NCBI GenBank assembly: GCA_041660885.1
Contig: JBAZVM010000007.1
Span: 17,896 to 81,895, forward strand
Direction: 5' to 3'
Source of the DNA: Patescibacteria group bacterium
Lineage (GTDB): Bacteria; Patescibacteriota; Patescibacteriia; UBA9570; JAHJKD01
DNA: 64,000 nucleotides
This document shows, piece after piece, positions 8,596-23,056 of the stretch. Within the stretch, counting starts at the first letter, position 1. Every line of letters starts with the position of its first letter. The translations under genes and the position numbers were made by a program. The notes under the pieces were generated by a model. It made no database searches. It worked only from the letters and a program-made list of their open reading frames with translations, and was not told the origin of the DNA.

Positions 8596-9636
8596 TCAGG
8601 GCTTCTCCGCCTTCTTTTCGCGCACGTTGTCGTAGTGCGCTACCAGAAGGGGAATAAACCCGAGGTGAGCCGCGATCTCCGCGAACTCACCCATGTCTTG
8701 GAAACCATTGCGACCATTCCCGTTGGCCGCAACAGTAACCACCGCTTCCCACACACAACCCGGAAGCCAGTTGGCCTTATAACCGGGAAGGGCGGGACTA
8801 AAAGCGAACCCAGGAAGAGAGATGGCCACCTTGTACAAGTGGCACCCTCGAGCTCGAACGAGTTCGCACAGCCAGCTTGGAATCTGGGGGTGCGTATCGT
8901 CGAGCACTTTGGTGCCCTTCGCAAGATGTGGCACACAACTCTCGAATTGTTCACCTTCGGCGGTGAGCACGACGACCACCTGGCATTTCTCCAACCGGCT
9001 GGGGTCGGAGGTGCGAGTGACGCCGCCGTCGTACTGTTCTTCTTTGAAACGCTGATCGAGGGCTACGATGTTCTGGTAGCCCAACTCCTTGAGCCGCTCG
9101 ATCAACCGAGAACCAGAGTAACCACCCCCACCAACCACCGCCAGTTGTTTCATGCGGTGGATCTCGTGGCGTGCATATACCATGTGCACGCCCTGAGAAA
9201 TGGTGTGGATGGTTCCTCGAACGCCGTCCACGAATGGATGGGCGTTCATATCGTGTCCGTGCCGCGCCAAAATACCCGGCATGCGCCCGGCAATGGCCAC
9301 CTTGGTCTCCGAAGAGATTCGGGCAGCCGTATACCGAAGCGCACCGTACAGACGCGCCGCCTCAGAGGGCTCCGCCTCCGCCTGCTGTGTGGAGATCATT
9401 GTCCCGAAGTAGAGACCTCCCCCGATGAACCCAAGCGGGAACACCGTTGGAAAGATCCTTTTCGCGATGCCGATCGTCCACGCAGGGAAGTAGCCCTTTG
9501 TGTCTTCGGGTGTACCGGGGTACACCACGAAGATGAAGGGCCACTGCCGCTGTCGGAAGATGTGCCACCCCAGCAGGAGGGTGACCATCTGTACGAACCG
9601 GAACATGGTCCGGTTCAGACGCCGTAGCGTCCTCAT
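8596..9636 (-). CDS. NAD(P)-binding oxidoreductase, acyl-ACP-reductase / shikimate-DH-like family (GC-rich island 1)
   Basis: 346 aa. Rossmann motif VVGGGGYSGSRLIERLKELGY. N-terminal FIFVVYPGTPEDTKGYFP and the overall layout resemble cyanobacterial acyl-ACP reductase-type proteins (from memory, not searched). Hydrophobic N-terminus. SD GGAGGTG lies 4 nt before the ATG. The antisense 349-aa track ORF is rejected. Confidence 0.6.
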   Translation of the reverse strand: MRTLRRLNRTMFRFVQMVTLLLGWHIFRQRQWPFIFVVYPGTPEDTKGYFPAWTIGIAKRIFPTVFPLGFIGGGLYFGTMISTQQAEAEPSEAARLYGALRYTAARISSETKVAIAGRMPGILARHGHDMNAHPFVDGVRGTIHTISQGVHMVYARHEIHRMKQLAVVGGGGYSGSRLIERLKELGYQNIVALDQRFKEEQYDGGVTRTSDPSRLEKCQVVVVLTAEGEQFESCVPHLAKGTKVLDDTHPQIPSWLCELVRARGCHLYKVAISLPGFAFSPALPGYKANWLPGCVWEAVVTVAANGNGRNGFQDMGEFAEIAAHLGFIPLLVAHYDNVREKKAEKP

Positions 9637-9673: not shown

Positions 9674-9835
9674 TCACGTGATGGCGAGCATCACCGCAAT
9701 GAACGCCGTAACCGCCAGCAATGCAAGCACTGCCACCGGCCAGACGCCAAGCAATGGTGCCCACCAGGGGAGATTCCGCATCTCCTCCAACTTATCACGG
9801 ATGTCCGTGGTTTCATCCGGCGACAACGGGGCCAT
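9674..9835 (-). CDS. small membrane protein (53 aa), first gene of GC-rich island 1
   Basis: Below the track size cut-off. My translation is MAPLSPDETTDIRDKLEEMRNLPWWAPLLGVWPVAVLALLAVTAFIAVMLAIT. SD AAGGAGG lies 5 nt upstream. There is one C-terminal TM helix. The stop is 38 nt before the next start. Confidence 0.5.
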   Translation of the reverse strand: MAPLSPDETTDIRDKLEEMRNLPWWAPLLGVWPVAVLALLAVTAFIAVMLAIT

Positions 9836-10140: not shown

Positions 10141-10232
10141 ATCATATATGAAAATATTTTATTTATGTATGCGACGGAGGGCTCCAGCTGTGCTGTTGTG
10201 AAACCCTCCGTCTGTGCGCCGCGCATGGCTTC

Positions 10233-10436
10233 CTACCTCCCGAAGAGGTAGCTGAGGCTCGACCCGCCCAACGCGAGCCCGAGAACCACGTTGCCGATGC
10301 TCAGCACGATGTGTCCCTCCGCCATGAGGAATCCCCCAGCGAAGACCGATCCGATGCCACCGATCACACCGAGAATCGCTCCCACGATGGCGATCAGGAC
10401 CATCATCAACCCCTTTGTCGACATTTGGAACGTCAA
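10233..10436 (-). CDS. small glycine-zipper membrane protein (GC-rich island 2)
   Basis: 67 aa: MTFQMSTKGLMMVLIAIVGAILGVIGGIGSVFAGGFL...LGLALGG. Two predicted TM helices rich in GxxxG. TTG start with SD GGAGGTG 4 nt upstream; an alternative ATG is at 10424. Confidence 0.55.
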   Translation of the reverse strand: MTFQMSTKGLMMVLIAIVGAILGVIGGIGSVFAGGFLMAEGHIVLSIGNVVLGLALGGSSLSYLFGR

Positions 10437-11923: not shown

Positions 11924-12234
11924 ATATTTTTTTTAGAATAAAAATCAGCGTAAAATCATAGTGGAAAACACCTTCAACAATAGCCGGTATTCTACCAAGA
12001 CAGCCATTCCCCATTCAACTGCCTTGATGTTTTCGTAACCTCCTTTACCCTGAGCCCATTCTTCTTTGGCTGATTGCCAAAAAGTTGTCGAAGGGTTTTT
12101 TAGGAGCGCTAGATTTTACGCTGTTTTTACTCTTAAACCATTCTCGCAGTTTAAGAGCGGAAGGGCAGAAGAGGCGGGTTTCATGCCCTCTTGGCCTAAC
12201 ACTACCCATTATACCCCATTATGGTCAATAGACT

Positions 12235-12326
12235 TTTAGAGACGGCGCTAAACAAAAAGCCAGCCTTTTTGGGCTAACTTTAGCCAAAAAACTTATGTGG
12301 ATAACTTATTTAGCGACGGCGCTAAA
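12235..12326 (+). promoter_or_regulatory. pair of 7-4-7 palindromes TTTAG(A/C)G-ACGG-CGCTAAA (locus 1)
   Basis: Sites at 12235-12252 (TTTAGAGACGGCGCTAAA) and 12309-12326 (TTTAGCGACGGCGCTAAA, perfect 7-bp arms), 74 bp apart. The second overlaps the last codons of 12306..12665. Confidence 0.6.
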
Positions 12327-12665
12327 CTTATGTAATTTCTCTACTTTATTATCTAAACGCTGTAACCAATCAACCACAAAAACATGATCTTCATCAATTT
12401 TATTTACTCTTATTGCTATTGCATCGACAGCGCTCACTAAGTCATTAAACTCACTTCGATAAACCATATTCTGTTTAATTTCTGAAATTTCTTCAGTATT
12501 TTTTAATACAGTATTAATTAAACGATCGAACTTTTTATCATGATCTCCTAACTTAATATTAATCTGGTCGAACTTTTTATCATGTTCTTCTAGTTTACTG
12601 TTGATCAGATCGAACTTTTTATCATGTTCGTCCAGCTTTAATAATATTTTATCAATTTTTGTCAT
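12306..12665 (-). CDS. coiled-coil protein with three 14-aa tandem repeats (EHDKKFDxINxKLx)
   Basis: I place the start at the internal Met MTKIDKILLKLDEHDKKF (ATG 12665-12663). The track N-terminal extension runs through the ssb terminator hairpin. A 42-nt DNA period is visible at 12526/12568/12610. Confidence 0.5.
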   Translation of the reverse strand: MTKIDKILLKLDEHDKKFDLINSKLEEHDKKFDQINIKLGDHDKKFDRLINTVLKNTEEISEIKQNMVYRSEFNDLVSAVDAIAIRVNKIDEDHVFVVDWLQRLDNKVEKLHKFSAVAK

Positions 12666-12722
12666 AGGTCTATATATTTTATATTTAAAGATTATTGCTG
12701 TCAAAGATAGGAATTTATCCCG

Positions 12723-12754
12723 GAATGTCCCCCGCATTAATGCGGGGGACATTC
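12723..12754. terminator. perfect 16+16 palindrome after ssb
   Basis: GAATGTCCCCCGCATT|AATGCGGGGGACATTC, 7 nt downstream of the ssb stop. No clear U-run. Confidence 0.5.
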
Positions 12755-12760
12755 ATCCGG

Positions 12761-13183
12761 CTAAAACGGATTTTCCGTGGTAGCCGGGCTTTCTTCAATA
12801 ATGGTGGCTTCTTCCGCGACTTTTTGCGCGTCTTCGCGCTTGGTGGCGCCGCCGAGCATAATCATGTTGCTGGCCACGACATCAGTGAAATACTTTTTCT
12901 TGCCATCTTTGCCTTCGTAGCTGTTGTTGTTCAAACGGCCTTCAAAATACACTTTGTCCCCTTTTTTTAAATAAGCGGCCATGTTTTGGCCCAGTTTGTT
13001 CCAGCCAATGACGGTGTGAAAATCCGCTTTGCTTTTCTTTTCTCCGCTTTTTTGGTCTTTCCACTTGTGGTTGGTGGCCAGGGTTACTTTTGTTACGCTT
13101 TGTCCGGAAGTTAAATTCTTGTTTTCCGGTTCTCGGGCAATGTTGCCGATAAGAATTACTTTGTTTAGATCCATAAGATTCAT
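12761..13183 (-). CDS. ssb: single-stranded DNA-binding protein
   Basis: 140 aa. OB-fold N-terminus LNKVILIGNIAREPE...FHTVIGWNKLGQNMAAYLKKGDKVYFEGRL and an acidic tail. Confidence 0.85.
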   Translation of the reverse strand: MNLMDLNKVILIGNIAREPENKNLTSGQSVTKVTLATNHKWKDQKSGEKKSKADFHTVIGWNKLGQNMAAYLKKGDKVYFEGRLNNNSYEGKDGKKKYFTDVVASNMIMLGGATKREDAQKVAEEATIIEESPATTENPF

Positions 13184-13486
13184 TTAATTATTAATATTTA
13201 AATGGGTAATTGTTGGAAGCCCGGGCTAACAAAATTAATGTTTAGCAAAAAGAAAATCATAGGCGAGCTCCCCTTGCTAGAGAAAATCAGCCCGAGCTTT
13301 TTTAAGTTGTCAACAGGTTTTTTGAGACGGCTCCCTACTTGTCGTATCTCAAATTGCCTTGTTTTGATGCGGAGGAAAACTTCTTCCGCAATTTTTTTCA
13401 AAAAAAACAGAGACGTCCCTAAAAAGGGAACGCCTCTATTTTCTGAAATAATCTTAGCAAAAATTAAATGGATGTCAAATATTGAA

Positions 13487-14041
13487 TCATTTATTCCTCC
13501 ACTTAAAATAATCTTGATCCTCTTCCATGATCTTTTTAAGATTATCGCGGATGAAATCAGCTTTGTTTATCTTGCCATGCTGGCTTTTCCAGTTTAAATA
13601 GTTCTCTAAGGACTCTGTCATGCGTAAAGTGTATTTAATATTAGGTACTTCGGCGATCTGCAGAGTGGGCTTGATGCTTTTTACGAATTTATAAAGCGTG
13701 TCTTTTAAATTATTCTTGCAATAACTCTTTATTTGAATACTACGCGGCACATTTTTACGGCGTAAATACATAAGCAAAGGCCTGGGCGGATTGCTCTTTT
13801 CAAAGAAGCATAGGGTTTCCTTCTGAAGCAAAATAGCTTGAGCCAATAAATAATTTATCTGCGCGTCGGCTTTGGTGATTTCCAATAATAAGCCGTCTAC
13901 GCGTTCCAGCGGATTAATATTAATCTGATCCCAAGTATCCATGGGGCCCGCGTCCTGCGGTTTTTGCCATAGCTGCACTCCGCTTTTCACTAAGAGGGTG
14001 GCGGCTTCGGTTTTTTGCGGATCTTGCAGATAAATAATCAT
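13487..14041 (-). CDS. hypothetical protein (C-terminal ribbon-helix-helix-like segment)
   Basis: 184 aa. Its start codon abuts the stop of the upstream gene 14043..14999. No confident family assignment. Confidence 0.4.
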   Translation of the reverse strand: MIIYLQDPQKTEAATLLVKSGVQLWQKPQDAGPMDTWDQININPLERVDGLLLEITKADAQINYLLAQAILLQKETLCFFEKSNPPRPLLMYLRRKNVPRSIQIKSYCKNNLKDTLYKFVKSIKPTLQIAEVPNIKYTLRMTESLENYLNWKSQHGKINKADFIRDNLKKIMEEDQDYFKWRNK

Positions 14042-14042
14042 A

Positions 14043-14999
14043 TTAAAATTCTCCGGCTAAATTCTGCCCCATTAATTTTTTTACCTTCTTAATATCGCTG
14101 GTTTGCCCCAAAACCCAAACAAACTTGGCTACGGCTGTTTCATAATTGATTCCGGAGCAAATAAAAACATTATCCGATTTTATTTCCGTGCCCTGGGAAT
14201 AAACGCATACGGGAATATGCTTCGGTAAATTGTAGCGGCTGGGGTAAAGTTGTTCTTGAAATCCACGAATAAAAATACCGGCGTAATCTTTATTAGCCAA
14301 ATCAGCTTCGCTTTCCGGGTGTACATCCAATATTTTAACGCGGCTGATAAATTTACCGTTGAATTCCGGATCATTCTCATGCCTTTTTTTCACGTAATTA
14401 TTTAGGTGAATGCCAAATTGGATCCTGGCTAAAGAATGCTTTTGAAAAAAAGAAAGATATTTTCCCGGATCATCCCAATTGAATTTAGCTTGCGTAGCGC
14501 GCACCAAATGATTACCAATAACCACGCCCACTTCGGAATTATCCATGGTGGCGATCTGCACGGCGTTGATGAGCCCGGATTTAATAGCTAAAGTTTCGAA
14601 TTCTCCGAAACTAATGGGCTTTTTTTTCTGTTGAAAAAAAATTTGCTCGTTTTCCTCAGGCAAGGCCGGGCCAGTAAATATAATGGGCTTGCCCGTGTTC
14701 TGCGCCATAAAAGCCAGCAAAGAACTGGTGTAAACGATATTATCTATGCTATGCGTTATTACAAAGCCGTCGTATTTTTTATAATTATCTTTGATAATAG
14801 TTGTTAGCCTGCCAGCCAAATCCCAAGGCACATCCGCACCCGCGCCATGCCATACAAAATACGGTTCCACTTGCGCCATCATTTGCAGCTCAAAGGAATT
14901 GGAAATCCACTTTTTTAACATGGCCAAATTAAAATCCGGCCCAAAGGTGGTGCCTCCGGCGTAGAGCAAACAGATTTTTTTCTGGCTTAAAGATTGCAT
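14043..14999 (-). CDS. L-asparaginase/GatD-like domain protein
   Basis: 318 aa. KICLLYAGGTTFG resembles the asparaginase GGT(I/L)xG threonine motif, and ITHSIDNIVYTSSLLAF resembles HGTDTMEETA. Confidence 0.5.
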   Translation of the reverse strand: MQSLSQKKICLLYAGGTTFGPDFNLAMLKKWISNSFELQMMAQVEPYFVWHGAGADVPWDLAGRLTTIIKDNYKKYDGFVITHSIDNIVYTSSLLAFMAQNTGKPIIFTGPALPEENEQIFFQQKKKPISFGEFETLAIKSGLINAVQIATMDNSEVGVVIGNHLVRATQAKFNWDDPGKYLSFFQKHSLARIQFGIHLNNYVKKRHENDPEFNGKFISRVKILDVHPESEADLANKDYAGIFIRGFQEQLYPSRYNLPKHIPVCVYSQGTEIKSDNVFICSGINYETAVAKFVWVLGQTSDIKKVKKLMGQNLAGEF

Positions 15000-15033
15000 A
15001 TTTCTCTTATTTTTTTCAATTCTTCCACAGCTT

Positions 15034-15127
15034 TTTTAAGACGGCGCTATTATTTATAATCTCTATTTTAACCAATATATACAAGCTTTTTCTTAAATAT
15101 TTGTTTATTTTTAGAGACGGCGCTGGT
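15034..15127 (+). promoter_or_regulatory. pair of 7-4-7 palindromes (locus 2), second abuts the -35 of the cassette promoter
   Basis: Sites at 15034-15051 (TTTTAAGACGGCGCTATT) and 15110-15127 (TTTAGAGACGGCGCTGGT). A third half-like copy TTGACGGCTCT lies at 15131-15141. Confidence 0.55.
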
Positions 15128-15130
15128 TGA

Positions 15131-15159
15131 TTGACGGCTCTATAAAATCATCATATCAT
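15131..15159 (+). promoter_or_regulatory. sigma70-like promoter of GC-rich cassette A
   Basis: TTGACG (15131-15136), 17-nt spacer, TATCAT (15154-15159), about 70 nt before the ATG at 15231. Confidence 0.4.
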
Positions 15160-15230
15160 CCCTTTGTCTTTCTAGTCCAGATGTCCTGGGCAAGAAAGCG
15201 TTATCACACGCAACTCAAGGAAACACGCCA

Positions 15231-15917
15231 ATGTTGCGCTCGTTCTTCGACACCATCATCTGCCTCGCGCTCCTCAGCGCCTGCGCCCCGACCGACACCG
15301 ACAACCAGGAGCCTCTCGAGGACACCGACAACAACGAGTACACCTACACCAACGAGCCGGCCATCGAGTCCTACCCGCTCAACCTCTCGGACAACGACTA
15401 CGGCCCCGCCCTCGACGAGGAGGATCTCTACCTCATCGAGCAGGTCTACGGCGACATGTCCAAGGAGGAGTGGGAGATGCTCCTCGACGACCTCGCAGAG
15501 CTGACCGAGGAAGAGCTGCAGGAGTGGCTGGCCATCCTCGCCGAGGATCTCAGCGAAAACTCCACCATGAAAATTGCCTCCTGCTCCGGCTACTACGGCA
15601 GCCGCATCGGCTACGGCTGGTTCCCCTACTCGAGCACCTCCACCTACCGCAACCTCTGGACCACCAACTGCTACTTCCGCGGCGCGCAGTGCGGCAAGGA
15701 CTACATCGCAAGCTTCTGGATGGGCCCGGACTACCGTGGCGACCAGAGCGACCTCGTGGCTTATGCCTCAACCACCTCGGCACGGCTCTATCTGTTCTAC
15801 AGAGGAGGATACTCGGGGGAAATCTATCAGGGCGGATCGTACTACAACTTTTACGCCTGCTGGCCATGGGAAATTGGCGGTCTCATCGACAAGGCCCAGC
15901 TCAAGCAGATCTACTGA
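15231..15917 (+). CDS. lipoprotein, acidic linker + Cys/Tyr/Gly-rich C-terminal domain (GC-rich island 3)
   Basis: 228 aa with lipobox LLSAC. Codons end almost exclusively in C/G. SD-like AAGGAAA lies 8 nt upstream. Overlapping alternate-frame track ORFs are rejected. Confidence 0.7.
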   Translation: MLRSFFDTIICLALLSACAPTDTDNQEPLEDTDNNEYTYTNEPAIESYPLNLSDNDYGPALDEEDLYLIEQVYGDMSKEEWEMLLDDLAELTEEELQEWLAILAEDLSENSTMKIASCSGYYGSRIGYGWFPYSSTSTYRNLWTTNCYFRGAQCGKDYIASFWMGPDYRGDQSDLVAYASTTSARLYLFYRGGYSGEIYQGGSYYNFYACWPWEIGGLIDKAQLKQIY

Positions 15918-15937
15918 TGATTCTGAAGATCAACGAG

Positions 15938-15991
15938 AAACGCAGGGGTAAAGAGAAGTGCTTAAACTTTACTTCTTTGCCTCTGCGTTCC
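15938..15991 (+). terminator. long bulged hairpin with conserved loop, copy A
   Basis: AAACGCAGGGGTAAAGAGAAGTGCTTAAACTTTACTTCTTTGCCTCTGCGTTCC. Near-identical to copy B (21924-21978) and related to copy C (23008-23056). Confidence 0.55.
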
Positions 15992-16012
15992 AATCATTTG
16001 ATAATAGATAGA

Positions 16013-16059
16013 TTGACATTATTTATAATTTTGTTAGCATACCTATGTATTCTAGGTAT
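16013..16059 (+). promoter_or_regulatory. promoter + putative PadR operator (copy 1)
   Basis: TTGACA (16013-18), 16 nt, TAGCAT (16035-40), overlapped by the inverted repeat ATACCTA-n7-TAGGTAT (16039-16059). About 50 nt match the padR upstream region with 4 differences. Confidence 0.55.
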
Positions 16060-16080
16060 TAATAAATAATTAAAATTATT

Positions 16081-17025
16081 ATGCACAAAGAAATTAAAAA
16101 AGATGAACGGAAGGATGGAAGCATAAAAAAAATATTTAAAATTTTATTAAATATTTTTTCCATTGCCCTCATTTTTTATTGTTTATTGGCAACAATTTTA
16201 ATCTGGTTGCTTGATAAACAAATTATCTCTTCAGTAATTAACATTACTAAAACATCCCCTGCTTTTGTCATTATTATGCCAAAAATGCTAATTGAATTGT
16301 TATTTTTAATTATACCGCTAACTATCTTTCAATTATTTGATATTGTTATATGGTTCTGGTTTATAGGCATAATTCTGTTTATTATACTTGGTTTAACCTG
16401 CTTTTCTTTCATTAAAACCATTATAAAGAATAAAAAAGAGAATAAATTAACATTCATCAATTTTCCTTGGATTAAATTAACTTTGGCGGTCTGGTTAATG
16501 AGCATTTTATTTTTTGGGTCAACGGGAACACCATCTCTAAGATGGAGCCAGCCGGTTATAAAAGTCTCTCGAAATATAGAAGTAACTCAATTTGGTCCTA
16601 TATATAATTTTGTTAAATATACTAATCGTGATGACGGCTTTTTCAAATATTCAATCAATATAAATATAGATAATAAATTTAGTGTGCAGCAGATAAAAAA
16701 TTCCAATAAAATTTCTTTATATAATATTATTAATGGATCAAAACTTAAGAAAAATAATAATTCTACGGCAATAGCAGAATATTCGGGAGATGAAACATTG
16801 CCAGCCGACATTAAGTGCTATGCCAATAATAATACTCAAAATAATTATATATACCTAAAAAACAGATGCAATGAATTATGGTATAAAGAAAAACTAATAT
16901 TTAAAACTAAAGAATGGCCTGTTTGGGTAAAACGAGTCGAAATAAATAATGATAATACCAAGCTTTTAATTCATATTTATCCCGGATATGTTACTCCCGA
17001 ATCTGTATTTTTAGTCACACTATAA
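16081..17025 (+). CDS. membrane protein (N-terminal TM bundle + Asn-rich extracytoplasmic domain)
   Basis: 314 aa, very AT-rich, with several predicted TM helices. Confidence 0.55.
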   Translation: MHKEIKKDERKDGSIKKIFKILLNIFSIALIFYCLLATILIWLLDKQIISSVINITKTSPAFVIIMPKMLIELLFLIIPLTIFQLFDIVIWFWFIGIILFIILGLTCFSFIKTIIKNKKENKLTFINFPWIKLTLAVWLMSILFFGSTGTPSLRWSQPVIKVSRNIEVTQFGPIYNFVKYTNRDDGFFKYSININIDNKFSVQQIKNSNKISLYNIINGSKLKKNNNSTAIAEYSGDETLPADIKCYANNNTQNNYIYLKNRCNELWYKEKLIFKTKEWPVWVKRVEINNDNTKLLIHIYPGYVTPESVFLVTL

Positions 17026-17032
17026 TTGTAAT

Positions 17033-17368
17033 ATGAAAATTATCGTTCTTAAATCAATTATTACAATCATTTGTTCTTTTTTTAGCGGGTTAATAATGTT
17101 TATATTACCAAGCCACTTTATACCCATATCTCCGGATAAATGGTACGACGATCCTTTTATATTCATACTATTTGGCATGATACTTGGGGCATTAATAGGA
17201 TGGTGGCTGAGTGATAAAAATATTTTGCGAGCTGCTATTGGAATTTTTTTGTATTTGATTGTCATATTTCTATCTTTTAATACTTTTACCAGTACCTTAG
17301 GATATGTATTATCTTTGCTTGCTTTAATTTCAATCGCGGTTTTTGTAGGTATTGCCCAGAAAAAATAA
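17033..17368 (+). CDS. small membrane protein
   Basis: 111 aa, about 4 TM helices, 7 nt after the previous stop. Confidence 0.5.
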   Translation: MKIIVLKSIITIICSFFSGLIMFILPSHFIPISPDKWYDDPFIFILFGMILGALIGWWLSDKNILRAAIGIFLYLIVIFLSFNTFTSTLGYVLSLLALISIAVFVGIAQKK

Positions 17369-17375
17369 TATTAAT

Positions 17376-17422
17376 TTGACATAATTTTTATTTTTGCTAA
17401 CATACCTATGTATTCTAGGTAT
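17376..17422 (+). promoter_or_regulatory. promoter + putative PadR operator (copy 2, autoregulatory)
   Basis: TTGACA (17376-81), 16 nt, TAACAT (17398-403), and the inverted repeat ATACCTA-n7-TAGGTAT (17402-17422). Confidence 0.55.
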
Positions 17423-17444
17423 TATCAAATAATTAAGCAAAAAT

Positions 17445-17762
17445 ATGCTAAATAAAGAACTGCTAAAAGGCTTCTCCCCCATTATCATCCTCTCCGTTTT
17501 AAGCGATGAAGCAAAATACGGGTATCAAATTGTGAAAGACATTAAAAAGAAAAGCGACAAATCATTAAACATCGCCGAAGGTACGCTTTACCCGCTTTTA
17601 CACAAGTTGGAAAAAGAAAAAATGCTTTACTCTTTTTGGCAAGAAGCCGGTGGCAGGAAAAGAAAATATTACGCGCTTTCGGCCAAGGGAAAAAAAGCAT
17701 TAAAAACGCAAAAGAACGACTGGCAATTATTTTTAAAAACCATGCATCAGGTTATCGATTAA
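17445..17762 (+). CDS. PadR family transcriptional regulator
   Basis: 105 aa. ILSVLSDEAKYGYQIVKDIKKKS...IAEGTLYPLLHKLEKEKML...RKYYALSAKGKKAL is the typical PadR winged helix. Confidence 0.85.
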   Translation: MLNKELLKGFSPIIILSVLSDEAKYGYQIVKDIKKKSDKSLNIAEGTLYPLLHKLEKEKMLYSFWQEAGGRKRKYYALSAKGKKALKTQKNDWQLFLKTMHQVID

Positions 17763-17767
17763 TTTTT

Positions 17768-18946
17768 ATGTTTTTATATAATCTTTGGCAAAAAACATTC
17801 TTGCCGGAAATAGATGATGAACTGGACGCTCATTTAAGCGAAGCCATGGATTTTTATTTAGAGCAAGGAGTTGATAAAAAAGAAGCCCATAAAAAAGCCC
17901 TGGCAGATTTCGGGGATCGTTCTTTGGTTATCAAGCAATTATTAAAAGAAAATATTTCATCTTATTATAATTTCTTGGCAACGATTTCTTTTTTATTGTG
18001 CGGCGTTATATTTATTGCCGGTTTTATTTTTTCTCATTCGGATTTTCTCATTAACGCCTTTTTTCTAAAATTTATATATATTTGGGCCATTTTCGCTTTA
18101 ATGCTGATCGGCCTGTATTATGTTAAATTTATTAATAATTTTTGGGGCGCTTTTAAAAATAAAACTTTGCTGGCGATTTTTTCTTTTATATTTATTTATA
18201 ACTTTATTATTGTTGTTTTTTATGATATTGATGCCATAGAAATAATAATGCAAAACACCCTTCTTCTAACGCCATTGTTAGCGTTGGCTTTCATCGGTAA
18301 AAAATATTCAAAACAATATCTATTCAGATTAGAAAAAATTATCTTTGTTATCATTACTCTTTGCACGGTTGCTCAAAAATCCGTTCTTAGCAGCTTGGGC
18401 AGTATTAAATGTTTATTCATAACGCCGGATAAATTATCTTCCGGCGCTTCTTCTTTTTCTTCATGCCAGCAATTATCTTTTTTCAGTTGGAATCTTTTGC
18501 CGTTTTGGTTAATCGCAGGGGCTTCTATAGGAATGCTTCTATTTTTTCTTTTTAATTATTTAAAAAGCAAACAAAACATAATAAACAAAATCTTTATCGG
18601 CTTAACCAGCACAGCCATGATTGTCTGCCCCATATTTCTTTTTGACAGCAATAACTACCATAAAGTGGAAATCATTAATTGGCAGCCGGAGATTATTCAA
18701 GCTTACCGCGATATCTTAGGCCGAGATCCGGAAGAGAAAGACATGGCTTTTTACGCTGAACATGAGACTTATTTATACATGGACAGAATCAAAGACACTT
18801 TATATCAATCTCAAGAAAGAGAAATAAAAATTAATCTGATTTATCAAAAAATATTAAAAAGATCGCCCAGCGAAGAGGAGCTAAGCAGATATATAGAAAA
18901 TAGAATGAGTATTAAAGAAATTAGAAACGAACTGCGAAATTTATGA
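17768..18946 (+). CDS. PadR-associated membrane protein (N-terminal permease-prefix-like helix, multi-TM core, C-terminal DUF4214-like repeats)
   Basis: I place the start at ATG 17768 (MFLYNLWQKTFLPEIDDELDAHLSEAMDFY). The track start 17636 overlaps padR in another frame. The C-terminus IIQAYRDILGRDPEEKDMAFY / IYQKILKRSPSEEELSRY resembles DUF4214. Confidence 0.6.
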   Translation: MFLYNLWQKTFLPEIDDELDAHLSEAMDFYLEQGVDKKEAHKKALADFGDRSLVIKQLLKENISSYYNFLATISFLLCGVIFIAGFIFSHSDFLINAFFLKFIYIWAIFALMLIGLYYVKFINNFWGAFKNKTLLAIFSFIFIYNFIIVVFYDIDAIEIIMQNTLLLTPLLALAFIGKKYSKQYLFRLEKIIFVIITLCTVAQKSVLSSLGSIKCLFITPDKLSSGASSFSSCQQLSFFSWNLLPFWLIAGASIGMLLFFLFNYLKSKQNIINKIFIGLTSTAMIVCPIFLFDSNNYHKVEIINWQPEIIQAYRDILGRDPEEKDMAFYAEHETYLYMDRIKDTLYQSQEREIKINLIYQKILKRSPSEEELSRYIENRMSIKEIRNELRNL

Positions 18947-20088
18947 AGTATGCTAAATATATTATTACATGTTCTTTCCTGATAATCTGCTTGCCTTTTT
19001 TATCCAAAGCTGAAGAGACTAATGCTATTGTCTCCTTTATCCCCCAAGAAATCGACGACCAAATAATTTACCCCTCCCGTTTTGTCATTCCTGAAGTAAA
19101 AACTTTTCATTACTTATCTTACGACTCTGTTAAGATTAATCCCGCTTGGGCGAATAAAGGTTATTATTTTGAAATATGGAATGATCAGAATCGTCCCCTG
19201 CCGGATTATAAAGCGAGAAAGCTGGAAACCGATATCATTGATTTAAGCCGCGTTGATGCCACGCAGACAAAAGCCATCCGCATAGTGATATTCATTCCGG
19301 ATAATAAAGAAGCGCTGGCTCCGGGCGATTTTGCTTTTAGCTGGCAATCGGGTTTTGATTGGCGCTTGTTGGTTTTTACAATATTCACCAGCCTACTGAT
19401 AATATTAATAATAATTTTTTCTATTTATTATCGCCTTAAGCCTAAAGAGATTTTAAAGCTCACAAAAAAATTGAGTTTCAGAGGCAATATAGAAACCGAT
19501 TCTAAAAAGCAAATAATTTTATTGATTTGGATAATAATAATTTTTGCGGGCATTTATGGGGTGGCTTTGGGTTATTTTATGGGAGGAATACAAATACTCT
19601 ATGTTCTGATCAAACTGCCGCTTCTATTCATTGGATCTTTATTCATTTCCTTTATTACCGCTTATGTTTTGAATTTATTATTGGGAGGAAAAGAAAAAGC
19701 AACGGCGGTATTTATCAATGCTTTAAGCGCCTTGGCCATTACTTCATTGATTCTCGCTTCGTTGGCGCCGGTATTATGGTTTATGATAATTATCCCAAAT
19801 AAGCACGACATTATAGTTTTTATTAATGTTTTATTTTTCGGCATTGCCGGTTTGATTGGAGCTTTATTTTTCTATAAACAAAGCCGTAATAAAAATATAC
19901 TGGGTTTCCTGCTGTGGCTGTTTTTATATGGATTAGTGGCTCTGCAATTATCTTGGTTGCTGCGCCCTTGGGTGGGATTAATGGAAAATGTGGATATAGC
20001 CATTCCCTTTTTGCGCCTTTACGATGGTAATGTGTTTGTGGAAATATTCAATATAATAACCCGCGCGGGAAGCGGGCACGCAATTTAA
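18943..20088 (+). CDS. membrane protein: signal peptide + ~120-aa outer domain + 6-7 TM C-terminal domain
   Basis: 381 aa with ATGA overlap to the upstream gene. The C-terminal TM domain looks paralogous to 20104..20703. Confidence 0.6.
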   Translation: MKYAKYIITCSFLIICLPFLSKAEETNAIVSFIPQEIDDQIIYPSRFVIPEVKTFHYLSYDSVKINPAWANKGYYFEIWNDQNRPLPDYKARKLETDIIDLSRVDATQTKAIRIVIFIPDNKEALAPGDFAFSWQSGFDWRLLVFTIFTSLLIILIIIFSIYYRLKPKEILKLTKKLSFRGNIETDSKKQIILLIWIIIIFAGIYGVALGYFMGGIQILYVLIKLPLLFIGSLFISFITAYVLNLLLGGKEKATAVFINALSALAITSLILASLAPVLWFMIIIPNKHDIIVFINVLFFGIAGLIGALFFYKQSRNKNILGFLLWLFLYGLVALQLSWLLRPWVGLMENVDIAIPFLRLYDGNVFVEIFNIITRAGSGHAI

Positions 20089-20103
20089 TTAATTAATATA
20101 TTT

Positions 20104-20703
20104 ATGAAAACATCAATCATTAAAACATTACTAAAAAACAAACAAGAAATCTACGAGTACTTGTTTCACGAAGAACGCTGGAATAAACTGACAATAAAAT
20201 TATTGCTTATCAGTTTATTTGGCATTGCCTTCTATGGCTTGGTTATGGGAACTTATGTGGATGAGTGGCAACATTGGTTTAAGATCAGTTATAAAGCCAT
20301 TCTATTAATATACGGTTCCATTATTTTATGCGTACCCGCCTTGTATGTTTTTACCAGTATTGCCGGCTCTAATCATACTTTAAAACAAATTGTTTTTTTG
20401 CTTTTAGGCGCCTTAGCCACAGTAGGAATTGTTTTCACTGGTTTTTTACCTATAGTTTGGTTCTTCACTTTTTGTACCAAAGATATTGTTTTTATTCGCG
20501 TAATGCACGGAGCAATAATTTTCTTAAGCTTAAGCTTCGGTTTATTTTATTTTCAGCAAGGCATGAATTATCAACCAGATAAAATAAAAAAACACGGCTA
20601 TTTTGGTGTTTTATTTTTATGGATGTTAGTTTTCTCAGCGGTTCTTTTGCAAATGGCGATAAAATTATCACCTTGGTTTAACAGCTTCAAAGGTTGGTGG
20701 TAA
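20104..20703 (+). CDS. multi-pass membrane protein, paralogous to the C-terminal domain of 18943..20088
   Basis: 199 aa. Shared pattern F-G-x-YG...YV...AL...P(I/V)(V/L)WF. Confidence 0.55.
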   Translation: MKTSIIKTLLKNKQEIYEYLFHEERWNKLTIKLLLISLFGIAFYGLVMGTYVDEWQHWFKISYKAILLIYGSIILCVPALYVFTSIAGSNHTLKQIVFLLLGALATVGIVFTGFLPIVWFFTFCTKDIVFIRVMHGAIIFLSLSFGLFYFQQGMNYQPDKIKKHGYFGVLFLWMLVFSAVLLQMAIKLSPWFNSFKGWW

Positions 20704-20720
20704 AATTTTGTCCACAAGAT

Positions 20721-20800
20721 TATTGCGACGGCGCTAAAAAATATTAGTTAATAATTATGGATAAACATGAAATAATCTACTTTTTAGCGACGGCTCTGAA
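20721..20800 (+). promoter_or_regulatory. pair of 7-4-7 palindromes (locus 3), second abuts the -35 of the cassette promoter
   Basis: Sites at 20721-20738 (TATTGCGACGGCGCTAAA) and 20783-20800 (TTTAGCGACGGCTCTGAA), 62 bp apart. Confidence 0.55.
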
Positions 20801-20802
20801 TT

Positions 20803-20831
20803 TTGCGCAATAATATTTTCTAATTTAAAAT
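20803..20831 (+). promoter_or_regulatory. sigma70-like promoter of GC-rich cassette B
   Basis: TTGCGC (20803-08), 17-nt spacer, TAAAAT (20826-31). Followed by a GC-rich leader of about 165 nt. Confidence 0.35.
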
Positions 20832-21002
20832 ATAAGCAACGAATCGACAATCTAAAAGGAAAGCTCGAGGGAAAATCGGGCAAGATCCCTACCATCTTGT
20901 TTACCCGATTCTCCCTGGGGCAACCTGGGATGCTTCTGCTCCACTCTCCGGCTGTTCGGAGGGAATGGGTATTAGCATCTAGTTCATTGGAGCGAACGAA
21001 CC

Positions 21003-21899
21003 TTGAAAACGTACATCGCCATCCTCCTGAGCCTCGCGCTCACGGGCTGCGTGCCCGAGAGCACCGACGACAACACCGAGCTCGCGTTCGACACGGCCTA
21101 CGACAACACCGAGAGCGTCGCCGACGGCAACTACACCGTCACGATCTCGGAAGACGAGGCCAAGCGCAGCGCCATGTTCGGCCTCGACGAGGACATCTAC
21201 TCAGCCACTTCTACCATCGTGGGCCCCCTCCAGTACCGCAACGAGTGGATTCCCGCGTACGAGGTCACGGTCAACGGTGGAGACCACATCATCCTCCGCT
21301 ACATCGATGGGAACGACGGCACCCTGCTCCAGGACATCGACGCCTACCACGAGATCCCGACCATGAACGAGGTCGATCTGCCGGAAGACGTCATGGCGTC
21401 CTACTACACGTCCTGCCCGTCCGGCTGGCCCCTGTGCATCGCCAACCCGTCGTCCATCACCTTCTACAGCCAGAACGACCCGAGCTGGAAGTATGACCTC
21501 CTCGGCAACAGCAGCACTTCCACCATCGGCGGATACGGCTGCCTGCTCTCGAGCTACGCCATGGAGATCTGCAAGAACGGGCACGGGTGCTACACGCCCA
21601 AGCAGCTGAACGCCTACAAGACCTGCTTCTCCGGCGATCTCGTGATCAACTCCTGCATCGCCAGCAAGGTCGGTGCCTCCTACTCCACCATCAGCCTGGC
21701 CTCGCTCTGGGGCAAGATCGCCTCCGGTGTTCCCGTGGTGGTCTACGGCAAGTCCTCCTGCATGGGCGGCAGCTACCACGCCCAGATGATCTGGGGCCAC
21801 GACGGCTCCCGCTACTGGACCAAGGACCCCTGGTACGACTGGACGAACCAGGACCAGGCCATGTGCGTGTCGTCGCCGAGCTATCGCGTCATCCACTAG
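21003..21899 (+). CDS. lipoprotein with PepSY-like domain and C-terminal papain-fold (C39-like/CHAP-like) cysteine peptidase domain (GC-rich island 4)
   Basis: 298 aa, TTG start, lipobox LALTGC. PepSY-like segment AYEVTVNGGDHIILRYIDGNDGTLL. Motif YSQNDPSWKY...IGGYGCLLSSYAM (candidate Cys) and later GGSYHAQMIWGHDG (candidate His). Codons end almost exclusively in C/G. Confidence 0.65.
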   Translation: MKTYIAILLSLALTGCVPESTDDNTELAFDTAYDNTESVADGNYTVTISEDEAKRSAMFGLDEDIYSATSTIVGPLQYRNEWIPAYEVTVNGGDHIILRYIDGNDGTLLQDIDAYHEIPTMNEVDLPEDVMASYYTSCPSGWPLCIANPSSITFYSQNDPSWKYDLLGNSSTSTIGGYGCLLSSYAMEICKNGHGCYTPKQLNAYKTCFSGDLVINSCIASKVGASYSTISLASLWGKIASGVPVVVYGKSSCMGGSYHAQMIWGHDGSRYWTKDPWYDWTNQDQAMCVSSPSYRVIH

Positions 21900-21923
21900 A
21901 GATGCACGATATGTTCGCTCACA

Positions 21924-21978
21924 AAACGCAGGGGCAAAGGAAAGTGCTTAAAACTTTACTCCTTTGCCTCTGCGTTCC
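21924..21978 (+). terminator. long bulged hairpin with conserved loop, copy B
   Basis: AAACGCAGGGGCAAAGGAAAGTGCTTAAAACTTTACTCCTTTGCCTCTGCGTTCC. Confidence 0.55.
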
Positions 21979-23007: not shown

Positions 23008-23056
23008 AAAAAAGAGGCAACGGGAAGTGCTTAAACTTTACTCCATTGCCTCTTTT
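23008..23056. terminator. hairpin copy C, bidirectional terminator between convergent genes
   Basis: AAAAAGAGGCAACGGGAAGTGCTTAAACTTTACTCCATTGCCTCTTTTT. It has the same loop as copies A and B and is flanked by an A-run and a T-run. Confidence 0.65.

Follow-up and report, generated by a model that had tools for sequence, protein, structure and literature searches.

What is the short GC-rich sequence that recurs in the AT-rich intergenic DNA of an uncultivated Patescibacterium, and what could it do there? We analyzed a stretch of 64 kb (contig JBAZVM010000007.1, positions 17,896 to 81,895; hereafter the window), the proteins of which are annotated by NCBI as those of a metagenome-assembled genome (MAG) of the 'Patescibacteria group'. 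This DNA is ordinary chromosome, with glycolysis genes, a dcw cluster, dnaK/dnaJ/grpE/hrcA, tRNA synthetases and histidine kinases. An earlier inspection of the letters alone (the sequence-only reading) had described a 7-4-7 palindrome in three spaced pairs and had proposed either a regulator acting at promoters or a recombination or landing site. We find that the repeated GACGGCGCT sites are real and conserved. They represent a cis-acting DNA element specific to one lineage, a clade of Patescibacteria, and are most likely binding sites for a putative regulator rather than insertion sites. The coordinates of all features are given in Table 1.

A search of the window for the core GACGGC returned eight intergenic copies, exclusively on the + strand and all inside 8.5 kb (12.2-20.8 kb); the remaining 55 kb hold no further intergenic copies. 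The six copies noted first, at 12235, 12309, 15034, 15110, 20721 and 20783, were all reproduced, together with the distances of 74, 76 and 62 bp within the three pairs. For the original 18-mer with up to three mismatches, we counted six matches at four sites compared to 0.09 expected, a number reached in no shuffle. The pattern GACGGC[GT]C[TC] occurs nine times on the + strand and never on the − strand (Markov expectation 1-2, both strands summed), and in an AT-rich subregion of 9.45 kb six occurrences were observed versus 0.03-0.06 expected. The excess in intergenic DNA, as looked for in an operator, is significant. The sequence-only reading had held the recurrence to be improbable by chance and had named comparison with shuffled sequence as the check; the observed count exceeds that expectation, and a chance origin of the repeat is ruled out by the excess over both shuffles and Markov models.

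Relatives carrying the element were identified in two ways. Scanning a genome collection with the 18-mer yielded 31 matches, about the chance level, with one true relative (locus L026), and scanning metagenomes yielded 22 matches, three of which are real: L038 (the L026 contig), L049 and L051 (the window organism). Further loci were obtained via homologues of three window proteins, with the asparaginase-like protein as the main route: L059, L062, L063, L064, L065, L066, L067, L069 (Kerfeldbacteria) and L070. Core proteins are 35-53% identical among the relatives carrying orthologous sites; L067 is a close relative of the window organism (core proteins 78-89% identical). Every locus of sufficient length keeps the order of an asparaginase-like gene, a gene for a protein of ~185 residues, SSB and a small coiled-coil gene, with a HisKA_7TM sensor gene (7TM, seven-transmembrane) farther on.

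The motif is located at orthologous intergenic places in the window and in all of these homologue-derived loci, with diverging spacers around it. At least ten related, uncultivated Patescibacteria carry the sites at the same intergenic positions. Between the ~185-residue gene and SSB, the composite TTGTCAACA-N10-GACGGC(T/G)(C/G)(C/T) is the best conserved spacer block of a four-genome alignment (core proteins 46-53% identical) and is also present in L064 and in the Kerfeldbacteria locus, where the adjacent protein is 35% identical. A pair upstream of the 7TM sensor gene, 74-75 bp apart, is shared by the window, L059 and L062. Upstream of the asparaginase-like gene the motif occurs in the window, L067, L063, L064, L065, L066 and L070 and is absent in L059 and L062. 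The element is also found at orthologous positions between the asparaginase-like gene and GC-rich genes for secreted proteins. L026 and L049 share a conserved module of ~320 nt in a different gene context, which contains a perfect DnaA box, two cores in tandem at 16 bp and, 91 bp beyond them, a third.

This depth of conservation bears on the idea of a self-spreading or duplicating intergenic module with terminator and promoter pieces, similar to miniature inverted-repeat transposable elements (MITE), repetitive extragenic palindromes (REP) or Correia elements, in which the core would be kept merely by recency of copying or by its role as a hairpin arm. Near-identical modules exist in L070 (c and d) and L064 (5751 and 6957), and the core does serve as a hairpin arm in L064 (GACGGCTC..GAGCTGTC followed by T5; two composites form the 5' arm of a terminator hairpin), in the inverted pair 17258/17283 of L062 and at 12611 of L059. 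Nearby, L062 and the window (13400-13440) contain related AGAGACG palindromes. We nevertheless regard such a module as highly improbable. Copies of REP sequences, bacterial interspersed mosaic elements (BIME) or MITEs would be dispersed over non-conserved positions, whereas the positions found here are conserved across genomes down to 35% protein identity, and we know of no REP or MITE copies that show position conservation at a divergence of 35-53%. All intergenic copies of the window fall within the 8.5-kb cluster, there are neither terminal inverted repeats nor target duplications, most copies have no complementary arm, and the spacers between cores are unconstrained in sequence with the spacing kept.

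A REP element or a DNA uptake sequence was ruled out by the local, position-conserved distribution. The Neisseria uptake sequence GCCGTCTGAA has GCCGTCT in common with the reverse-complement core GCCGTCTCTAA, some copies of the present element lie in terminator-like hairpins near genome-maintenance genes, and Patescibacteria are thought to depend on DNA uptake. The Neisseria sequence, however, occurs about once per kb throughout the genome, whereas here no copies were found in the 55 kb outside the cluster.

To define the element itself we derived a consensus from 37 core matches in AT-rich context, taken from eleven loci (ten genomes). In the resulting sequence, tTTTagaGACGGCgCTA, the information content is concentrated in an asymmetric core, and the conserved unit is GACGGC(G/T)C(T) together with a T-rich 5' flank. 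The 7-4-7 palindrome is perfect only at 12309-12326, a copy which overlaps the final six codons of an annotated open reading frame (ORF; 12306-12752, − strand). The copies at 15034 and 15110 have 5 and 4 mismatches to the 18-mer (manual count), all in the arms. The palindrome therefore does not describe the motif, and a dimeric regulator bound to it, as had been suggested, finds no support since the dyad symmetry is not conserved. A MerR-type 7-4-7 operator was likewise rejected: the dyad is perfect at few sites only, the arm positions do not covary, the spacer from TTGTCA to TAnnnT measures 21-23 nt compared to 19-20 bp for MerR-type promoters, and no MerR gene was found.

Many copies are composite, with a second box 9-11 bp upstream of the core. 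This box is TT(A/G)TCAACA, TGGTCAATA or, in L070, TTGTACAAG; alternatively, it is a DnaA-box 9-mer in either orientation. TGTGGATAA is found at 12296 of the window and three times in L070, TTATCCACA in L026, L049 and L069, and the DnaA-box-like TTGTCCACA at 20708 of the window. The box-and-core arrangement of the copy that begins with the box at 12296 also occurs in L070 (four times), L059 and L062.

The DnaA boxes raise the possibility of a replication-polar, DnaA-associated chromosomal element, in which core and box would act with DnaA or another replication or segregation factor and the strand would be set by the direction of replication. By our tally, about half of the cores, in at least five genomes, have a DnaA box beside them that is perfect or has one mismatch; in 11 of 12 loci the motif is found on the C-rich strand, the flipped orientation in L070 matches the sign of the skew, and the neighbouring SSB and DNPH1-like enzyme belong to DNA metabolism. 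On the other side, the 12 loci amount to ~3 independent contexts with skew confounded with gene orientation, the distribution is local, a switch in GC skew and a dnaA gene are both missing here, and many sites have a degenerate DnaA box or none. We consider this the most improbable of the explanations weighed here. As in DnaA-box clusters or where DnaA boxes serve as transcription-factor sites, perfect TTATCCACA 9-mers are present here, 0-11 bp from about half of the cores (again our tally) and next to SSB and nucleotide-salvage genes. Unlike in such clusters, the invariant part of the present element is GACGGC, the box can face either way and often gives way to TTRTCAACA, and no signature of an origin accompanies it. 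An oriC was excluded: the cumulative GC skew is monotonic over the window, no dnaA gene is present and the DnaA boxes are single at each site.

The cores are spaced in a restricted manner. A spacing of 62 bp occurs three times (window pair 3, L063, L064), 74-76 bp nine times (window pairs 1 and 2, L067, L059, L062 and four times in L070), 91 bp twice (L026, L049) and a tandem spacing of 16-18 bp six times (window, L067, L063, L064, L026, L049). The distances of 62 and 74-76 bp, which recur across genomes, correspond to about 6 or 7 helical turns. Although the spacing is kept, the sequence between the cores is not conserved, and a terminator hairpin is present there only where a co-directional upstream gene ends. 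A fixed spacing over free sequence matches the prediction of cooperative protein binding. The pairing is not universal, contrary to what had first been thought: 15040, 15116 and 15133 form a triple, the conserved copy at 13326 stands alone, and L065 and L066 have single copies. Two of the three weaker copies listed in the sequence-only reading proved genuine. The copy at 13320-13337 is the deepest-conserved site of all and was found in six other genomes, and the copy at 15131-15141 overlaps the −35 hexamer of the cassette-2 promoter. The third, at 10154-10170, is one arm of a hairpin (GACGGAGGG...CCCTCCGTC) and is probably unrelated to the element.

Promoters were predicted from sequence, not mapped, and two of them stand in a fixed geometry to the core. 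Of the two GC-rich 'cassettes' of the window (c2 and c3), c2 lies next to the asparaginase-like gene, and in the sigma70-like promoter of the gene in this position the −35 is itself a core copy: TTAGnGACGGCGC is followed after 8-9 nt by TTGACGGCTCT, then by N17/18 and TATCAT or TATAAT. Another core is located 17-18 bp upstream, and a composite 62-76 bp farther upstream. The layout of TTAGnGACGGCGC and TTGACGGCTCT is invariant in the window, L067, L063 and L064, with differing spacers. The − strand promoter of the 7TM sensor gene reads AGCGCCGTC-N10-TATTGAC(C/G)-N18-TA(G/A)(T/G)(G/T)T in the window, L059 and L062, and the reverse-complement core lies 12 nt upstream of its −35. In these contexts a core is found ~10-12 bp upstream of a conserved −35, at about position −50, or overlapping the −35, in either orientation. 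The geometry is constant in four genomes for the cassette promoter and in three for the 7TM promoter; it is not seen at SSB or at pair 3. A regulator acting at the promoter is the best-supported part of what had been proposed, given this fixed geometry relative to sigma70-like promoters and the spacings close to whole helical turns. The accompanying statement that the downstream copy ends 2-3 nt before the −35 applies to locus 2, with the end of the 18-mer at 15127 and the first base of TTGACG at 15131, and is unclear for locus 3. Reading the box TGTTGACAA as a simple sigma70 −35 was discarded, since its distance to the start codon of the asparaginase-like gene varies from 24 to 80 nt and a properly spaced −10 is missing at SSB.

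The element could also be the core promoter of an alternative sigma factor of the extracytoplasmic function (ECF) type, with TGTCAACA as the −35 and the GACGG-CGCT region, 15-16 nt away, as the −10 of + strand genes for envelope or secreted proteins. The 16 nt between ..AAC and CGCT are an ECF-like spacing, and the −35 would resemble TGTCACA of ECF41 promoters. The element is directional, ECF sigma genes occur in the same neighbourhood in L062, L064 and L065, and TCAACA-N18-TATAAT or TAAAAT fits in L063, L064 and L069. However, the invariant GACGGC would then sit in the spacer instead of the −10, core-only copies have no −35 box, and in L070, as well as in front of SSB, the 7TM sensor gene and the asparaginase-like gene, the element runs antisense to the gene that follows. 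Furthermore, the sigma genes themselves have no upstream motif, and no sigma factor gene is present among the window ORFs. We judge an ECF promoter to be very unlikely.

We favour operator sites of a putative DNA-binding protein that would control a small local regulon, and we give this interpretation an even chance of being correct. According to this model, one sequence-specific protein would bind the paired cores cooperatively or loop the DNA, with one copy ~10-12 bp upstream of or over the −35 and the second 62, 74-76 or 16-18 bp away. The regulon would comprise the asparaginase-like/DNPH1-like/SSB operon, the 7TM sensor gene with its long structured leader and the secreted GC-rich hydrolase or lipoprotein genes. 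Confinement of the motif to one region is as expected for a small dedicated regulon. The existence of the element, its excess, its conservation at orthologous positions and its placement relative to conserved promoter-like hexamers are observed directly; that a protein binds it, which way it would regulate and which factor is responsible are what we infer.

A number of observations weigh against the operator interpretation. Apart from the unconserved dyad symmetry, a genome has all of its copies on a single strand irrespective of how the flanking genes are oriented, a uniformity not predicted by a symmetric operator, and in L070 the copies are flipped relative to the same syntenic genes. Some modules of L070 and L064 are ~85-90% identical beyond the core, as read from the alignment and sequences, and look like recent duplicates or products of gene conversion; the L070 modules moreover separate variable gene blocks. 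At SSB the invariant TTGACA (TGTTGACAA) is not followed by a −10 at 16-19 nt. No − strand gene lies in front of pair 3, for which the + strand promoter, GCGACG-N18-TAATAT, is weak. Finally, the ribbon-helix-helix (RHH) assignment of the factor described below is statistically insignificant, and the factor is a candidate only.

The favoured candidate for the factor would be the DNPH1-like protein of the neighbourhood, 184 residues long with an RHH-like tail, possibly acting together with DnaA. Its gene lies between motif sites and is syntenic in all relatives. The protein has a DNPH1/Rcl fold (AlphaFold mean pLDDT 80; Foldseek match 9ia6_C with E = 6e-5), and its C-terminus is highly conserved, with IKYTLRxT followed by two helices in a strand-helix-helix order. 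An hhalign comparison of this C-terminus with CopG gave the correct register at non-significant scores (E 0.076, probability below 1%), and a profile search against the PDB returned only spurious antibody matches. On the basis of sequence and predicted structure we treat the protein as a lead only. DnaA, consensus boxes for which lie next to the cores, would be a second candidate partner.

Two known systems resemble such an arrangement. NrdR boxes are phased pairs beside or over the −35/−10 of genes for DNA precursors; they are widely conserved and bound by a nucleotide-sensing repressor. The present element also forms phased pairs, located at the promoters of an operon concerned with DNA and nucleotides, and its candidate factor is similar to a nucleotide enzyme. 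In contrast, NrdR boxes are 16-bp palindromes ~31-32 bp apart, whereas the sites here are asymmetric, 62 or 74-76 bp apart and on one strand; the sequences are unrelated, and no NrdR or ATP-cone protein is implicated. Operators of RHH proteins (omega heptads, MetJ metboxes AGACGTCT, CopG/Arc) are arrays of short direct or inverted repeats upstream of several promoters that are bound cooperatively by RHH dimers, and the core AGACGGCG resembles a metbox. The conserved strand-helix-helix of the neighbourhood protein, in the correct though non-significant CopG register, adds to this likeness, but the repeats described here are far apart and not contiguous.

The local PadR protein is unlikely to be the cognate factor, as it has a palindrome of its own in its own promoter and in that of a neighbouring gene. 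This palindrome, ATACCTATGTATTCTAGGTAT, is found at 16013-16060 and 17376-17425, in and directly after TTGACA-16-TAnCAT promoters preceding the gene at 16081 and the PadR gene (17445), and is likely the PadR operator.

The GC-rich genes adjoining the sites are relevant to the second proposal, a landing or recombination site. In c2 and c3 the GC content at third codon positions (GC3) is 0.88-0.94, with at most 66% C-ending codons, compared to 0.24-0.55 in the rest of the genome. An assembly chimera was excluded for the GC-rich segments: independent Logan and ENA assemblies contain the same junctions, and relatives carry orthologues. In L067, orthologues of c2 and c3 (59% and 72% amino-acid identity) occupy the same places, and its c3 keeps the structured 5' untranslated region (5'UTR) without a motif pair in front. 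An orthologue of c3 in L064 is 48% identical, about as much as the core asparaginase-like protein (45%). Gene blocks that differ between the window and L067 have no motifs at their breakpoints. Since c2 and c3 have syntenic orthologues and c3 of L067 lacks the motif, the cassettes are, on this comparative evidence, residents and not recent insertions at the motif. As to the gene family, a homologue of c3 from a Myxococcota MAG (contig GC 0.70; 68% nucleotide identity, mature domain only) nests among sequences of the Candidate Phyla Radiation (CPR), and by this nesting within the CPR c3 clade the family moves horizontally.

According to the recombination view, the ~110-bp paired modules would be direct-repeat sites of a recombinase encoded elsewhere (res- or integron-like) or portable homology used after natural transformation, and beside them variable genes of foreign origin, many of them GC-rich, would be acquired, lost or exchanged. 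All copies of a genome have the same orientation. L070 contains four paired modules, two of them ~90% identical over ~140 nt (read from the alignment), which separate blocks of 1-5 variable genes. GC-rich genes adjoin motif pairs in the window, L059, L062, L063 and L064 in either gene orientation. In L064 the core at 7227 is fused in frame to a 5'-truncated gene, in L069 three extra small genes lie directly downstream of the SSB composite, and the Myxococcota homologue inside the CPR c3 clade indicates horizontal movement of the gene family. Pair 1, which had been taken as a possible empty site, is indeed empty in the window and occupied in two relatives, where the orthologous pair adjoins a GC-rich M23 gene (L059) or a CHAP gene (L062); this lends that idea some support.

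Against recombination, Pfam scans of ~57 ORFs of the 64-kb window and the gene tables of 10 related loci showed no gene for an integrase, resolvase or transposase. Both cores of a pair point the same way and are not inverted, no attC-like structure is formed, and a partner site on a phage or plasmid was not found; as an attachment partner it was dismissed after scans of viral sequences gave chance or coding matches only. The syntenic orthologues of c2 and c3, the motif-free c3 of L067 and the motif-free breakpoints between the window and L067 all speak for residence, and the most conserved site, upstream of SSB, occupies a non-variable position in five genomes. The proposal of a landing site is weakened accordingly, and we consider recombination sites unlikely.

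In comparison with the attC sites of integrons and with res sites, the element shares same-orientation repeats directly after stop codons that separate variable genes (the four modules of L070; all window copies on +), and modules of ~110 bp with more than one candidate binding site. It differs in that an intI or resolvase gene does not adjoin the array in the window or the 10 loci, and that the cores are direct repeats instead of foldable inverted ones, the only hairpin between cores being the terminator of an upstream gene. Unlike integron cassettes, the 'cassettes' have their own promoters, contain 1-5 genes in either orientation and possess syntenic orthologues. A more specific form of the recombination view would be a gene-capture platform of Patescibacteria with its recombinase encoded elsewhere, in which modules of ~110 bp with two cores and a DnaA-like box, all in the same orientation, bracket variable gene blocks. 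GC-rich genes, notably those for cell-wall hydrolases, would be taken from GC-rich bacteria such as Myxococcota and placed behind resident promoters and leaders, in an integron-like manner with a different site architecture, by an episymbiotic lineage living on scavenged DNA. This we hold to be slightly less likely still. A literature search on CPR integrons, promoter motifs and codon usage yielded nothing relevant.

The element has some significance for the phylum. Very little is known about transcriptional control in Patescibacteria, the CPR lineages that are uncultivated, reduced and mostly host-dependent, and the element is a rare CPR cis-element backed by deep phylogenetic footprinting. 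Its candidate regulon would join SSB and an operon resembling one for nucleotide salvage with a 7TM sensor gene and with genes for secreted proteins similar to murein hydrolases, the composition of which is foreign (GC-rich), a combination as expected of a programme for lysing a host and scavenging its DNA. The outcome is a concrete motif with defined sites and a testable candidate factor; if recombination were true instead, it would point to an unrecognised mechanism of gene capture. What makes the element interesting is that it is so deeply conserved within a phylum about which little is understood, that its uniform strand is puzzling and that it is linked to genes with a foreign composition.

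Table 1. Sites of the element and associated features in the window.
Feature	Position	Strand	Details
Core starts	12241, 12315, 13326, 15040, 15116, 15133, 20727, 20789	+	
Sigma70-like promoter (predicted), 7TM sensor leader	12199..12228	−	−35 TTGACC 12228-12223, 18-nt spacer, −10 TAGTGT 12204-12199
Pair 1, first copy	12222..12252	+	box TGGTCAATA 12222-12230, N10, core GACGGCGCT 12241-12249; − strand reading AGCGCCGTC-N10-TATTGACCA; orthologues L059 18835, L062 17358
Intrinsic terminator, coiled-coil gene	12256..12281	−	between the pair 1 copies; hairpin, then T run
Pair 1, second copy	12296..12326	+	perfect DnaA box TGTGGATAA 12296-12304, N10, core 12315-12323
SSB-upstream single composite	13307..13337	+	TTGTCAACA-N10-GACGGCTCC; antisense to SSB; orthologues L059, L062, L063, L064, Kerfeldbacteria L069
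Gene of candidate factor (suggested by sequence)	13487..14041	−	184 aa, DNPH1/Rcl-like N-terminal domain, RHH-like C-terminal tail
Pair 2, distal copy	15021..15051	+	TCTTCCACA-N10-GACGGCGCT; 22-52 nt upstream of the asparaginase-like start codon (− strand); counterparts L067 1634, L063 9520, L064 7227, L065 5032, L066 3142
Tandem cores and cassette-2 promoter (predicted)	15110..15159	+	cores 15116-15124, 15133-15141; TTGACG(15131)-N17-TATCAT(15159)
GC-rich transcription unit c2	15160..15985	+	conserved 5'UTR; lipoprotein gene 15231-15917, GC3 0.88; terminator hairpin 15940-15985
Pair 3, first copy	20708..20738	+	DnaA-box-like TTGTCCACA-N10-GACGGCGCT
Pair 3, second copy	20783..20816	+	core 20789-20797; possible cassette-3 promoter GCGACG-N18-TAATAT with weak −35
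GC-rich transcription unit c3	20865..21973	+	structured 5'UTR; C39-like lipoprotein gene 21003-21899, GC3 0.94; terminator hairpin 21928-21973

The whole stretch between the two cores of pair 1 folds at −19.7 kcal/mol. A small RNA arising from the SSB-upstream composite was rejected: a strong + strand terminator is present in the window only, and neither a consensus structure nor covariation was found. Covariance-model searches with Rfam, at the gathering threshold and at a relaxed E-value, brought only tRNAs to threshold.

The 5'UTR of SSB (~13205-13295, − strand; also L059, L062 and L063) contains a long-range stem, GCYnAGGCyr...yrGCCTTnGC, with compensatory changes between genomes, which starts ~8 nt after the TGTTGACAA box. 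The HisKA_7TM leader (11924-12198, − strand, ~270 nt) is conserved and structured in the window, L059 and L062, with a closing helix of 25 bp (AAAAACAGCGTAAAATC...GATTTTACGCTGATTTTT) and a conserved hairpin, AAGACAGTTAAATAGGGAATTGCTGTCTT. It has no match in Rfam and is possibly a novel cis-regulatory RNA. In L062, a cluster of palindromic repeats (GTAGAGACGCGCCATGGCGCGTCTCTAC and variants) at ~16900-17230 (+ coordinates) adjoins the motif pair; the AGAGACG arm of these repeats resembles the left half of the motif.

Further GC-rich genes of the window lie on the − strand at 8596-9636, 9674-9835 and 10233-10436; together with c2 and c3 they have a GC content of 0.59-0.63 and a GC3 of up to 0.94. 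The syntenic c2 and c3 remain GC-rich both in the window and in the relatives, with no drift to host composition. One 5'UTR and MLRSF start are common to three unrelated mature domains, namely that of c2 (of unknown type), an M23 peptidase in L063 and a C39-like domain in L064, which suggests that the secreted part is replaced in a modular manner. The shared GC-rich 5'UTR (TGTCTYTGTCTTYC..GTCCRGA..CTGG) with the protein start MLRSF(F/L) is located at 15160-15251 of the window, at 9430-9310 (−) of L063 and at 5640-5555 (−) of L064. The GC-rich 5'UTR of c3 (20865-21000, GGGAAAATCGGGCAAGATCCCTACCATCTTGTTTACCCGATTCTCCC...) is nearly identical in L067, where the DNA upstream differs, and may be a structured leader. 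Automatic gene calls in GC-rich segments were on the wrong strand in L001 (8477-9172, −) and L063 (8337-9395, +); in both cases the opposite strand contains lipoprotein ORFs with signal peptides. Finally, a family of long terminator hairpins with the conserved tip GGAAAGTGCTTAAACTTTAC occurs at 15940-15985, 21928-21973 and 23014-23052, 3' of GC-rich and AT-rich genes alike, and is also present in L063 and L067.

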